Of a stretch of DNA of 64,000 bases, positions 6,177 to 12,900 are shown in pieces; within the stretch, counting starts at the first letter, position 1, and each line of letters opens with the position of its first letter. Under the pieces are notes generated by a model. The model was given only the letters and a program-made list of their open reading frames with translations. It was not told the DNA's origin and ran no database searches. Location: NCBI GenBank assembly GCA_918797485.1, contig CAKKNE010000003.1, positions 4,030,001 to 4,094,000 of the forward strand, in the 5' to 3' direction. This DNA comes from Pelagomonas calceolata. Lineage: Eukaryota. Both the position numbers and the translations under genes were made by a program.

Positions 6177-9100
6177 TTATTTATTTATCCCCCAGAGCTT
6201 GAGCGTCTTGTCGCCCGACCCAGACACGACGCGCCGCCCGTCCGGAAACACGGCAACGCCATAGACCTACGACGAAGACAGATCATCACAAAAGTACAGC
6301 GGACGCCGCAACGCACGGCACGCGAGTGCCCTCGCAGCGTCGCCAGGCATTTGCCGGTCGCCACGTCCCACACCTTGAGCACTCCTTCCCCGCTATTCCA
6401 AACCCCATCACAAGAAACGACGCGCCGCCCGTCCGGTGAGATGGCAACGCCCCAGACCTACGACGAAGACAGATCATCACAAAAGTACAGTGGACGCCGC
6501 AACGCACTTGATAAGAGTGCCCTTCCAGCGTCGCCAGGCATTCGCCGGTCGCCACGTCCCACACCTTGAGCACTCCTGGCGTATTAAGACTCCCATCACC
6601 AGACACGACGCGCCGCCCGTCCGGAGAGACTGCAACGCACTTGACCTACAACGAAGCCAGATCATCGCAAAGGTACAGTGGACGCCGCAACGCACCTCGC
6701 CCGAGTGCCCTTCCAGCGTCGCCACGCATTTGCCGGTCGCCACGTCCCACACCTTGAGCGTGTTGTCGCCCGACGCAGACACGACGCGCCGCCCGTCCGG
6801 AAACACGGCAACGCCCCTGACCTACGACGAAGCCAGATCATCACGAAAGTACAGCGGACGCCGCAACGCACTCTGTTAGAGTGCCCTTGCAGCGTCGCCA
6901 CGCATTTGCCGGTCGCCACGTCCCATACCTTGAGCGTCTTGTCCCACGACGCAGACACGACGCGCCGCCCGTCCGGAAACACCGCAACGCAAAAGACCTA
7001 CGACGAAGCCAGATCATCACAAAAGTACAGCGGACGCCGCGCAACGCACTCTCTCAGAGTGCCCTTGCAACGTCGCCACGCATTTGCCGGTCGCCACGTC
7101 CCAGACCTTGAGCGTCTTGTCCCACGACGCAGAAACAACGCGCCGCCCGTCCGGAAACACGGCAACGCTCGAGACCTACGACGAACACACATCATCACAA
7201 AAGTACAGCGGACGCCGCAACGCACGGCATCCGAGTGCCCTTTCAGCGTCGCCACGCACTCGCCGGTCGCCACGTCCCAGACCTTGAGCGTCTTGTCGCC
7301 CGACGCAGACACGACGCGCCGCCCGTCCGGAAACACGGCAACGCCCCACACCTACGACGAAGCCAGATCATCACAAAAGTACAGCGGACGCCGCAACGCA
7401 CGTAGTCGGAGTGCCCTTCCAGCGTCCGCACTAAGGCGAGCTTGGACAGGTCGATTTTTTGCTCCTCCTCCTCTTCCTCCTCCTCGACGATCGCGCCGCC
7501 GCCCGGGACGGTCGGGAGCGCCGCCCCGCGCCGGAAATATCGCACAACGTCCTGCGCCGTGGGCCGCTCCATCGGATTACGCTCGAGCATCGCGGCGACG
7601 AGGCCGCCGAACTTGGTCGACGCTGCGCTGGTCTCCTCGACGAGCGCCTTCACGGCCTTGGGGTCGAGCGCAAAGACGCCCGGACAGCGATTCTCCACCA
7701 GCCTCCCCGTGACACCCCCGCCGAGCATGCAGCCCAGGGCCCAGACGTCGTCCTTGCCGTCGTACCCTCTGCCCATCGCCTTCTCCGGGGATCGGTACAT
7801 TTCAGCGCCGACCTTGTTTGCGCCGCTCGCCGGAGAGACCTTGGACTTTGCAACGAGAACTGTGGCCAGCCCGAGGTCGATGATCTTCGCGACGCCGGTC
7901 CCGTCAAAGAGCACGTTGCCGGGATGGAGGTCGCGGTGCTGCATCCGTTGCTCGTGCATGTGCGCCAGGGCCGACGCGACCTCCGTCGTCCATTTCTCAG
8001 TAGCTGCCGCGCGCTCGCCTGTGTCGCTCGTGAGCGGCCCGGACGCCCGTTGGAGGCGCTCTAGCAGCGAGCCGCCCTTCAAAAGTTCCATGACGATGGC
8101 GAAGAATCTGTTCTTCTTGAAGCGGTAGGCCGTGAAGTAGTTGACGATGTTCGGATGATCCAGCATCGAGAGCCGCGCGGCCTCTTCCCGCAGCTTCTCG
8201 ACGCCGACGCCCGCCCTTTTGATGTTGATGAGCTTGACGGCGCATACGCGCCCATCCTCCCTGCCTTTCATTCTATGTGTCGACCCGAAGGAGCCCCACC
8301 CCAATAGCGACGCCTCCTGGTCCGAGTCATCCGAGTCGTACGGGTCGTACACGTACTGGTCCTGGATCGTCGCCTCATTCATTTGCAGCGCATCGATCTT
8401 GGCCTTGAGCTCGTTGATGCCGTCCGTAGTCTCGGCGTGATACGAGGCGGAGCGTTTCGCGTGGTCGTCGAGCTTCTTACTGCCGTCTTGGACGGCGGCC
8501 AGCAGCTTCTCGTCGCGCGCCACGGCCGCTTTTACGGCAGCTAACACCTTGGCGATCTTCGCGCGGTCACCCTGCTTGCAGTCGAGCATATTTTGCATCT
8601 TCTTGTTCAGACCGTCGAGGCTCTCCCTGACCTCGCTCAGCTCGCTCGCAAGCTCCGCCGCCGGTAGGTCCGCGTCGACCGCGACCGACGCGATCGCGAC
8701 GGGGTCGTTCGAGAGCACCGCCACCACCGTTCCCTCGGGCTCGCCGGTCTCGCGGACGCGCGCCTCGACGAGCTGGTTCATGGACGCCTCGATGTTGTAG
8801 GTGCGCTGGATCATGTCCTTGTCCCTCGCGAAGCGGTAGGCGTCGCGGAACACGTCGAGCTGCGACACGATCTCCTTGTCGAGGGAGGTCAGCGATTCGA
8901 CGTGGCCGCGCATCGTCCAGGCGCGCTTCATCCAGCCCTTCTTCCCGAACTTTCGCACCGCCGCGTTGAACTTGACGAGCAAGTCCACCAATCTCCGCAT
9001 CTTCGACTCCACGAGCGCCTTTTCTTCGAGGCGGTCGACGTTCTGCGCCATTAGATACACAATATCCAAGACGTCGCAGACCCGCCGCGCCGCGATGGTG

Positions 9101-9924: not shown

Positions 9925-12900
9925 CTAGCACGCGTACAGCTTGAGCGTCTTGTCGCCCGACGCAGACACGACGCGCCGCCCGTCCGGGGACACGGCAACG
10001 CCATAGACCTACGACGAAGACACATCAGCACAAAAGTACAGTGGACGCCGCAACGCACGTAATCCGAGTGCCCTTCCAGCGTCGCCACGCACTCGCCGGT
10101 CGCCACGTCCCAGACCTTGAGCGTCTTGTCCCACGACGCAGACACGACGCGCCGCCCGTCCGGAGAAATGGCGACGCCGCGGACCTACGACGAAGACGCA
10201 TCATCACAAAAGTACAGCGGACGCCGCGCCGCACTCTGTTAGAGTGCCCTTGCAGCGTCGCCACGCATTTACCGGTCGCCACGTCCCATACCTTGAGCGT
10301 CTTGTCGTACGACCCCGACACGACGCGCCGCCCGTCCGGAAACACGGCAACACCGCGGACCTACGACGAAGCCAGATCATCACAAAAGTACAGTGGACGC
10401 CGCAACGCACGTCTCTCGAGTGCCCTTCCAGCGTCGCCACGCACTTGCCGGTCTCGAGGTCCCACACCTTGAGCGTGTTGTCGAACGACCCAGACACGAC
10501 GCGCCGCCCGTCCGGAAACACGGCAACGCAATAGACCTAGGACGAAGCCAGATCATCACAAAAGTACAGCGGACGCCGCAACGCACGTCGTTCGAGTGCC
10601 CTTCCAGCGTCGCCACGCACTCGCCGGTCGCCACGTCCCACACCTTGAGCGTATTGTCAATCGACGCAGACACGACGCGCCGCCCGTCCGGAAACACCGC
10701 AACGCAGCAGACCTACGACGAAGCCAGATCATCACAAAAGTACAGCGGACGCCGCAACGCACGTAATCCGAGTGCCCTTTCAGCGTCGCCACGCACTCGC
10801 CGGTCGCCACGTCCCACACCTTGAGCGTGTTGTCGTACGACGCAGAAACGACGCGCCGCCCGTCCGGAAACACGGCAACGCCCCAGACCTACGACGAAGC
10901 CAGATCATCACAAAAGTACAGTGGACGCCGCAACGCACTCTCTCAGAGTGTCCTTCCAGCGTCGCCACGCATACGCCGGTCGCGATGTCCCACACCTTGA
11001 GCGTCTTGTCGTCCGACGCAGACACGATGCGCCGCCCGTCAAGAAACACGGCAACGCCCCGGACCTACGACGACGACAGATCATCACAAAAGTACAGCGG
11101 ACGCCGCAACGCACTCTGTCCGAGTGCCCTTCCAGCGTCCGCAGCTCGACGAGCTTCGATGGATCGAGTTCGAAAAACGGCATGAACCGCAGGTCGCCGC
11201 GCGCCACCGTCGCGACCGCGCTCGCGTCCCAGATCGACTGCAGCACCTTCATCGGTTCGGGTTCCGACGGGGTGGTGGCGGCGTCCGCGTCGACTGCAGC
11301 CTTTTCCGCCACAGGCGCGTCGACGGCGCCGTTTGGTGACGCCTCCTGTGCGCCGTCACTACCGCGCGCAGGTGCCGAAGACGCTTTGCTAACAGCAGTA
11401 GCGTCGCCATGAGTCGCAACGGGTGCCGAAGTCTCTTCAACCACAGCACCGACAACATCGTCCGCCGCCGTCTCCGCCCGATTCCCGCGCTCCGCGGCAT
11501 CACTATAACCTCCACCAGCGACCAGCTCGACGCGCCCCAGGAACTCGAGCCACCCGCCCGGCAACGCTTCATTCACGACAGCAACCGCGAGCTGCGCGCG
11601 CGTCATCGCGCGATACAAACGCGACCGCGTCTCGAGCACGCCCGCGCCGCGATCGATGACTTGGTCCAGTCCAACGCAAATAACGACGAGCCGTTCCAAA
11701 CCGTCCATGTTATCCACACTATCGACAACAAGCAGCTGCTTCGCGTCGGCGGCGCGCGCCTCGGTGTCACCGCGCGGCAAGACCGCGCTCGCCGTCGCCG
11801 CGTCGACGAGCTCGAATCCTCCCAGAGCGCGAGCGAGCGGCTCGCGGAGCTTCTCAATAAATGCTTCATCTGGCCCGACGACCGCCACGCGGTCATCCAG
11901 GTCCTCCAAATCCACGAGCTGGCGCCGGATGGCCGCCAGCGCCTCGACGACCTCGCGCGCATAGGTCTCGCCGGCATCGTCGCCTTCAGATGTCGTAAAG
12001 ACCCTCGCCACGAGCGGCGGCCCCGCTGATGCCGAATGCGTCGACGTCTCGGCTTTGCGCCCGGCCTCGAGCTGGAACGCGGCGGCGCCCGCGACAATGC
12101 GCTTCGTCGAACGGACGACCTCGGATAGCGTCGCCACGACGACGTCCTGCTCCTGTGGCAGTTCCACGAGCGAGCGCGCGATCTCATCCGGACTTTGCAT
12201 CGCTGCCGTCGCCTGCGAGGCGTCGCCGAGGAACAAGAGGCTCGATTCGGCAGCACCAAGCTCCGCGAGCTCCGATCGAAGCGAGGAGTCGCCCACGAGG
12301 TGGTGGGCCTCGTCGACGACGATGAGCGCGTACGTCGTGGCCTCGACACGCGAATTCCCAAACATGAGCCGCCGTCGCCCGCCCGCCGCCTCGACGTGGA
12401 CGCGCCGCGGCCCACTCGAAAACGGCGCCACCAACACGTGCACGCGCTCCACAACATGCTCGGCAGACTTGCGCGACGCGACGACGAGCCACTTGCAGAC
12501 AAAGAGCGCCAGCGCTTCGTTTCGCGCCACGAAAAGGACCGTCGCATCGGGATCTTCATTCAGCACCTGCACCACACGTTGGACAGCAACGAAGGTCTTC
12601 CCACCGCCCGCGGGTGCGAGCAGCACCGCGACCTTTGCGCCTCGCACTTCCGTGAGCTTCTCGCGCTGATGCATCGTCAGCTTCGCGAACCGCATCATGA
12701 TCCGCGCGTAGCACTCCATGAACGCGCCCCGGTCTACGTGGACATCGACGCTCTCGACTCGGATCTTTGCGTCCGGCGGCGCGCCCAGAGAACTGTCGGA
12801 GTCTCCCGCGAGGAAGCGCTCGTTTTTTAGCAGACACCTGCCGCTCTGGCTCATCGACGCGCTAAAGCCCAGCTCCTTCATCTTGTCGCTCGTTGCGAGC

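Follow-up and report, generated by a model that had tools for sequence, protein, structure and literature searches.

A recombining WD40 family with one predicted blade per exon and differing N-terminal domains in Pelagomonas calceolata, a likely repertoire of intracellular sensors

We analysed a 64,000-nucleotide (nt) window of contig CAKKNE010000003.1 of Pelagomonas calceolata, a single-celled alga of great abundance in the ocean; the window carries two neighbouring genes, A and B, on its minus strand (all coordinates refer to this whole stretch). Each gene consists of a long exon 1 followed by seven short exons and ends C-terminally in seven WD40 repeats. Both belong to a large Pelagomonas family, the size of which was estimated from reads only. 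In this family, homogenisation of the repeat scaffold and of the intron extends over different genes and loci, the repeat units are mosaics, amino acid change is favoured at hypervariable codons of the propeller top face, and the N-termini differ, also at the syntenic locus. We consider it likely, at a probability of about two in three, that the combination of a recombining array of one predicted blade per exon with interchangeable enzyme or death-like domains represents a repertoire of intracellular sensors of non-self, probably of viruses and for example of their proteins, by analogy to known systems.

Blade exons and variable codons

The 14 introns of the two arrays are all of the GT-AG type and in phase 0, and their length is 50 nt in 13 cases and 52 nt in one. 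Of the 12 internal exons, 10 measure 126 nt, the other two being 138 and 141 nt long. A single exon was already recognised as WD40 by Pfam (E 3e-10, above the cut-off), and H39, D19, W25 and S15, which form the Asp-His-Ser-Trp tetrad, are invariant in the window units. According to the standard WD40 topology described in the available part of PMC3419727, one internal exon is predicted to provide strands a, b, c and d plus the d-a loop and hence exactly one structural blade, while exon 1 would contribute the d strand closing the ring with the last exon. Seven repeats are present in A, B and the marine loci L001, L002 and L005 (see below), five in L010 and six in L028 and the cut-off L012.

Codons 41 and 42 close one exon, and an invariant Val followed by codons 2 and 3 opens the next. 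With a slash for the exon boundary, the junction residues read DR/RG, ER/WG, DY/CC, ND/YC, RD/RG, NR/RG and DY/YG in gene A and DY/WG, DA/SS, ER/FC, NR/RG, GE/KC, YQ/WG and RA/YG in gene B, identical to the 14 junctions listed by the initial annotation of this DNA, in which gene A had been called gene 2 and gene B gene 1. The second variable site named there, S-x-D, was also recovered, with x being D, Y, I, F, Y, W, G, W, W, G, G and G in the 12 of the 14 units without a loop insertion. In the family set, several units carry b-c loop insertions of 3–18 residues as a further variable element of the top face.

In the 14 window units, the amino acid entropy amounts to 2.35–2.56 bits at codons 2, 18, 41 and 42 and to at most 1.6 bits elsewhere, and the nucleotide diversity is 0.059 per site in the introns versus 0.36–0.75 per position at the same four codons. 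These figures bear out the previous statement that scaffold and introns are more conserved than the variable codons. For the scaffold, the proportions of non-synonymous (pN) and synonymous (pS) differences were 0.075 and 0.16, respectively. The introns had also been described as identical, which does not apply: they are homogenised only, with variation in 14 of the 50 columns and 12 distinct sequences among the 14.

The exact intron motif was found at 28 loci in marine metagenome contigs and had no matches in viral contigs. From 27 of these loci, 98 units were parsed (some were missed by the parser), which together with the 14 window units and after removal of one duplicate gave a set of 111. 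Their junctions comprise 106 distinct four-residue combinations. Codons 41, 42, 2 and 18 each take 14–19 different residues, and the entropy reaches 3.1–4.0 bits at these positions (86–111 units from window and marine contigs).

By the published sequence rule in the available part of PMC3419727, codons 42, 2 and 18 are predicted to be the top-face hotspots R1-2, R1 and D-1, and the intron would therefore sit between R1-2 and R1. The earlier assignment of the variable residues to the top-face patch of the propeller agrees with this rule.

Exchange among the repeat units

Recombination among the units had been proposed before, and the units indeed do not follow a tree. In a test on 12 of the 14 window units with the variable codons excluded, the best tree required 21 homoplasies, while clonal simulations averaged 5–7 and none of 180 reached 21; shuffled columns, which correspond to free recombination, gave 24.7 ± 1.6. 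The units are thus mosaics by a test confined to the window, and 54 of 78 site pairs failed the four-gamete test. The scaffold p-distance is 0.075 both within and between loci, and the internal conservation of the repeats lies in the range defined as high (80–100%). Genes A and B have the rare codons TCT at position 40 and AGA at position 42 in common, the window containing 5 of the 8 TCT and 5 of the 7 AGA copies (p<0.001 for either codon, both chosen after looking), which points to exchange between these neighbours.

The initial annotation had located this exchange in the introns, which would then serve as dedicated recombination sites joining the two halves of the patch. One part of this proposal holds, since codons 42 and 2 are unlinked across the intron (ratio 1.08, p 0.38) and codons 41 and 3 only weakly linked (p 0.015), while adjacent codons are linked (ratio 1.99, p 0.001 for 41-42; ratio 1.6, p 2e-4 for 2-3). 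It also fits that the intron diversity of 0.072 is lower than the mean of 0.122 at fourfold sites of the scaffold, and that units A2 and B3 agree upstream over 12 nt and units A3 and A7 over 17 nt, yet differ in their downstream codons. However, codon pairs 45–48 nt apart inside the exon are equally unlinked (ratio 0.93 for 2-18 and 0.88 for 3-18), and r2, as a measure of linkage in 32 long units, has dropped to background once sites are more than about 5 nt apart, with or without an intron between them; at 31–60 nt, exon-only pairs have a value of 0.027 and intron-spanning pairs one of 0.031. This equal loss of linkage indicates that exchange occurs throughout the unit, so recombination is not confined to the introns, and a special role of the introns in it is not supported. 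Moreover, the median fourfold-site diversity of 0.07 equals that of the intron, and an intron of 50 nt consists mostly of splice signals. We therefore regard a dedicated recombination site in the intron as unlikely, although no other alternative fared better.

Selection on the top-face codons

At codons 42 and 18, the third position is almost fixed, being C in 71 of 75 and 55 of 57 pyrimidine-ending codons, respectively, while the first and second positions show a diversity of 0.58–0.74. This combination speaks against a mere hotspot of mutation; at codon 41, no such pattern is seen. Selection was further analysed by a self-made site test on 54 exons and 39 sites with unadjusted p-values, using both a star and the scaffold tree. 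The non-synonymous rate (dN) exceeded the synonymous rate (dS) on star and tree at codons 2, 18 and 42 (p 0.0003–0.038) and also at codon 37, and on the star only at codon 16; codons 2, 18, 41 and 42 tested as one class gave p-values of 1e-4 and 0.0025. In the same test, the non-synonymous rate was about 20–33 compared to a shared synonymous rate of 1.7–4.5.

For the HNWD genes of the fungus Podospora anserina, the selected codons were reported as 7, 9, 25 and 27 (available part of PMC1805685) and as 10–12, 14, 30, 32 and 39 (available part of PMC12222747). Judged by their spacing, these would align with codons 42, 2, 18, 20 and 41 of our units. Three of the four codons equivalent to those of Podospora (42, 2 and 18) were positive in our test, which is approximate in the presence of recombination.

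N-terminal domains

The domain encoded near the start of gene A has a predicted RelA/SpoT fold with recognisable synthetase motifs. Its structure was modelled with a predicted local distance difference test (pLDDT) score of 67.6 and retrieved 47 Foldseek matches at E<=0.001 (best E 1.2e-5), in line with a profile match at E 1.3e-6, whereas the Pfam match (E 0.092) was below the cut-off. The P-loop of gene A belongs to a superfamily-1 (SF1) helicase; nSTAND_NTPase5 reached only 20 bits versus a cut-off of 34.

The kinase of gene B looks intact from its motifs, and the helical bundle preceding it (model pLDDT 81) may tentatively be called MLKL/RPW8-like, as suggested by a structural alignment with MLKL (Z 10.1, root-mean-square deviation 2.5, 115 aligned residues) and an atlas value of 0.94 to a cluster with 36% MLKL_N. 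The matches obtained with PADLOC were generic ones to kinase and helicase. RelA/SpoT, kinase and HeLo-like domains are also among the effectors of fungal NOD-like receptors (NLRs), where they are swapped as well (available part of PMC4986451).

Family members at the syntenic and other loci

Two of the marine loci contain the Hsp70 gene that neighbours gene B in the window. Immediately next to Hsp70, L002 combines an exon resembling that of gene A (93% over 645 nt) with seven blades, the end of which is like that of gene B. L005 covers the region from the end of Hsp70 through the sequence upstream of gene A and contains a single gene, coding for a different RelA-like domain and seven blades. 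No junction of L002 or L005 matches one of the window at all four residues. The Hsp70 genes of the two loci are 82–85% identical to that of the window, so these loci may derive from related species or strains.

Gene B has 17 relatives in the collection, of which 8 extend as far as the first junction, none of them with DY at this place, and three retain the bundle (84–90%) in front of an unrelated kinase (about 30%). One protein, P0160, equals gene B over 616 residues, and its tail, which was read by hand in another frame, contains an HV/NC junction that was also found in RNA with 419 reads. P. calceolata appears to be haploid (available part of bioRxiv 10.1101/2024.10.30.620910), and P0160 is therefore likely to be a paralogue of recent origin, in which a different sensor is joined to an unchanged effector. 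A protein search with one exon gave 679 matches, and the best 120 of these included no named protein of Pelagomonas.

Further arrangements were seen in the collection. In L017, L019, L020 and L021, the last blade exon is followed by another linker and the beginning of an additional array, as a tandem or double-propeller arrangement. At L003:3-1457, an N-terminal region of 485 residues without a Pfam match is fused to a WD40 array of this family and is a candidate effector. Moreover, P0021, P0033 and P0034, which are predicted to be transmembrane receptor kinases with external FG-GAP-type repeats (PF14312), contain the bundle of gene B as well.

Weighing the proposed sensor function

The mechanism that we propose extends to effector domains, family size and positive selection creating the variation that recombination reshuffles, on all of which the initial annotation was silent. 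Diversifying selection would retain point mutations at top-face codons, and gene conversion or unequal crossing-over, acting at any position of the 176-nt unit, would spread them. The intron would be copied with the scaffold, and as a passive side effect it would widen the 3-nt gap between R1-2 and R1 to 53 nt of homology, so that the hotspots reassort. Crossovers between neighbouring arrays would swap the effectors. For the remaining steps, we infer that a ligand bound at the top face would activate the domain fused to the array, which would be the kinase with a membrane-attacking bundle in B and the alarmone-type synthetase with the helicase in A, and that growth arrest or death of the infected cell would follow.

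Several observations weigh against this reading. The sensor function of the family rests on analogy, and the usual NLR switch appears to be missing, because no NACHT, NB-ARC or HET domain was found at E<=0.1 in exon 1 of either gene. For the bundle of gene B, the Pfam match to MLKL_N (E 0.036) was below the cut-off, Foldseek gave no match at E<=0.001, and designed bundles and CAMP factor (Z ~12.5) outranked MLKL. The site test is approximate because recombination breaks its tree assumption; codon 41 showed dN=dS, codon 20, which is selected in Podospora, was variable without being positive, and codon 37 was positive outside the top-face triad. Without correction, pN/pS at the variable codons amounts to no more than 0.54/0.47 (~1.15) in the 14 units of the window, and a conservative minimum-spanning allele count gave ratios below 1 (0.55) without dN>dS, both measures being saturated. 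Finally, metagenome contigs assembled from short reads may be chimeric in arrays of this kind (available part of PMC12222747), and such chimeras could abolish linkage and give the impression of effector swaps; the window-only homoplasy test and the RNA-confirmed junctions of gene B are unaffected by this, because they are independent of metagenome contigs.

With a pN/pS near 1 at the variable codons of the window, surface positions that tolerate change and a sensor role based on analogy, the array might also be a recently amplified repeat under relaxed constraint in a housekeeping or signalling scaffold, with surface drift and recombination as a by-product. However, the variation is restricted to top-face positions while other surface codons are under purifying selection, and the high non-synonymous rate, the conserved third positions and the attachment of typical conflict effectors also speak against it. 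We judge this explanation slightly less likely even than a dedicated intron site, and we retain the sensor repertoire as the preferred reading.

Expression and splicing

PolyA reads of four runs, representing at most one sample, were mapped on positions 7226-9920, which include one repeat unit. The first intron of gene B was spliced out in all four runs, with 184–443 reads per run. In the deepest run, the unit was covered ~12,000-fold, positions 7406-8035 were covered 330–950-fold and the 5' part of gene B 22–118-fold. This excess of the unit over the unique 5' part indicates that many other copies are expressed.

Phase-0 exons of one blade each may be skipped in frame, and brown-algal ROCO genes provide a precedent (available part of PMC11378527), so diversity might also arise at the RNA level by exon skipping, as suggested in the initial annotation, or by trans-splicing among blade exons. 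We decoded 11 junction strings of the deepest run by hand, working with the best 12 of 664 junction rows. Five are exact consecutive junctions of gene B with 333–474 reads, the first intron is supported by 443 reads, and a joint with 322 reads was assigned to the expected ER/FC site by position alone. The other 6 of the 11 strings are foreign; they may be cited in favour of RNA-level shuffling, but their upstream halves are absent from the window and they therefore derive from other DNA copies. No skip product of gene B was present among these best 12 rows, which is a weak test for this gene only, and its junctions were used evenly (about 320–470 reads) in genomic order. A skip would also leave a six-blade propeller, and the mosaicism is already present in the DNA. 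RNA-level diversification thus appears quite improbable, more so than relaxed constraint.

Two further features of the transcripts were observed. Many minus-strand RNA fragments of gene B end at position 7992 (90 at a depth of 422 and 39 at a depth of 183 in two runs), and the depth falls about fourfold upstream of it. These ends may represent an internal start, with the ATG at 7959 in frame for a form of kinase C-lobe and WD40 repeats; alternatively, they may stem from a mosaic paralogue that has only the 3' part in common with gene B. In addition, antisense polyA RNA covers 8036-9835, i.e., the 5' half of gene B and the sequence upstream, at up to 100-fold depth, and over part of this region it equals or exceeds the sense strand in three of the four runs.

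Independent insertion of Introner-type transposons is a most improbable source of the similar introns: Introner-length introns were reported in P. calceolata (PMC9481584), but their lengths peak near 210 nt as opposed to 50 nt here, and the intron occurs only at the 14 array sites of the window and directly precedes a blade exon in 55 of 56 matches in the contig collection.

Features of the locus and other genes of the window

The positions of both genes, their domains and the neighbouring Hsp70 gene are compiled in Table 1.

Table 1. Positions of genes A and B, their predicted domains and exons, and the adjacent Hsp70 gene
Feature	Position	Strand	Remarks
Gene A	9925..13973	-	8 exons, 1233 residues predicted; gene model with inferred start codon; order: possible myristoylated N-terminus, RelA/SpoT-fold domain, SF1 helicase, linker, 7 WD40 repeats
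Gene A RelA/SpoT (small alarmone synthetase)-fold domain	13215..13706	-	Predicted by Foldseek and profile
Gene A SF1 helicase (AAA_30/AAA_19/Schlafen-group-3/UvrD_C-like)	11568..12677	-	Pfam E 7.6e-8 to 1e-5
WD40 array A	9925..11141	-	End of exon 1, 6 internal exons, last exon; seven 50-nt introns
Array A internal exons	11064-10939, 10888-10763, 10712-10587, 10536-10411, 10360-10235, 10184-10059	-
Array A last exon	10008-9925	-
Gene B	6177..9303	-	8 exons, 925 residues predicted; gene model, transcribed and spliced; order: helical bundle, coiled coil, Ser/Thr kinase, acidic linker, 7 WD40 repeats
Gene B N-terminal helical bundle	8809..9276	-	MLKL/RPW8-like (tentative)
Gene B protein kinase domain	7540..8310	-	Pfam Pkinase E 7e-42; catalytic Lys, HRD and DLG motifs
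WD40 array B	6177..7428	-	End of exon 1, 6 internal exons, last exon; seven introns, one of 52 nt
Array B internal exons	7351-7226, 7175-7050, 6997-6872, 6821-6696, 6645-6508, 6457-6317	-
Array B last exon	6266-6177	-
Array B first intron	7352..7401	-	RNA joint 7348-7399 skipping 50 nt, CT..AC ends, 4 of 4 runs
Hsp70 gene	4222..6171	+	Tail-to-tail neighbour of gene B; synteny anchor, outside the system

Between genes A and B, the plus strand encodes the C-terminal half of a thioredoxin (9674-9859, Pfam E 1.4e-9), which is absent at the equivalent place in L002 and L005. Three more genes of the plus strand were recorded elsewhere in the window. An open reading frame (ORF) of 792 residues at 53112-55490 starts with Met-Gly-Ala and encodes a TIR domain (Pfam TIR_2, E 9e-14) and one or more SAM domains; the helical part preceding the TIR domain looks bundle-like by eye, and the product is a candidate immune protein. 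A DUF285 repeat protein is encoded at 47082-50267 (E 3e-118), and DUF285 ORFs have been described as being in flux between a pelagophyte host and its virus, as far as the available part of the source goes. The third gene, at 29258-30316, codes for a protein with MYND, RINGv and TPR domains.

Comparison with known systems

The closest parallel is provided by the HNWD/NWD genes of Podospora anserina (het-d, het-e, het-r), which share near-identical WD40 repeats, concerted evolution and exchange between genes with the Pelagomonas family. Repeat homogenisation together with selected top-face codons has been described for them (available part of PMC13449251), and their hypervariable top-face codons would be equally spaced, if codons 7, 9, 25 and 27 of PMC1805685, in its available part, correspond to 42, 2, 18 and 20 here. 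The Pelagomonas family differs by lacking NACHT and HET, with the effector joined directly to the propeller, by seven repeats per gene, by a homogenised intron in each repeat and by its host, a unicellular stramenopile; the word intron is absent from the main text of PMC12222747 on the Podospora repeats.

Within the stramenopiles, the ROCO-LRR and NB-ARC-TPR genes of brown algae are candidate receptors in which each exon likewise encodes a single repeat at constant phase and recombination is both intra- and intergenic; diversifying selection acts on their binding face, as is also indicated here (available parts of PMC3341825 and PMC11378527). In contrast to these genes, as described there, the family presented here has WD40 instead of LRR or TPR repeats and no ROC-COR or NB-ARC domain that we could find, and its arrays contain 50-nt introns, no spare or inverted exons and an exon boundary between two hotspot residues. 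The alternative splicing of the brown-algal receptors was not seen here, as judged by the weak test on gene B mentioned above. Because the defining ATPase or GTPase is lacking, the Pelagomonas family falls outside both the fungal HNWD and the brown-algal groups.

The repeats of STAND-WD40 proteins of bacteria and archaea (Sorangium, Archangium and Methanothrix) are 51–76% identical to one exon, and such proteins fill the named rows among the best 120 matches of the one-exon search, in which the ranking favours proteins with many repeats. Unlike genes A and B, they have NACHT, NB-ARC or nSTAND domains and no introns. Gene B resembles MLKL, plant MLKL and RPW8 in that bundle, coiled coil and kinase follow each other in the order known from MLKL (Z 9.2–10.1), the likeness of the bundle being tentative. 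MLKL is a pseudokinase, whereas the kinase of gene B keeps its catalytic motifs and is fused to a WD40 array. The N-terminal domain of gene A shares its predicted fold and the synthetase motifs with small alarmone synthetases, from which it differs by its fusion to a helicase and WD40 repeats and its occurrence in a eukaryote.

In the open literature, with supplements and subscription papers outside the scope, we found no description of a Pelagomonas WD40 family and no paper naming both Pelagomonas calceolata and WD40, and the term WD40 is absent from the main text of both P. calceolata genome papers.

Implications

The neutral-like intron may serve as an internal marker for the length of conversion tracts, which bears on the question of how high internal conservation persists, as asked in the available part of PMC13449251. 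A bolder extension of the proposed sensor function would be an anticipatory immune repertoire in a picoalga, in which the intron makes the blades cassettes, exchange goes on mitotically in clones, crossovers join the arrays to killing enzymes, and the system works like NLRs without the STAND switch; we consider this possible, albeit doubtful.

If the family acts as proposed, the recipe known from Podospora, a homogenised WD40 scaffold with selected top-face codons, would recur in a distant lineage, together with the exon-per-repeat design of brown algae and without a STAND ATPase. As an expressed candidate family in a culturable alga, with alleles readable from ocean data, it may be tested against virus susceptibility.

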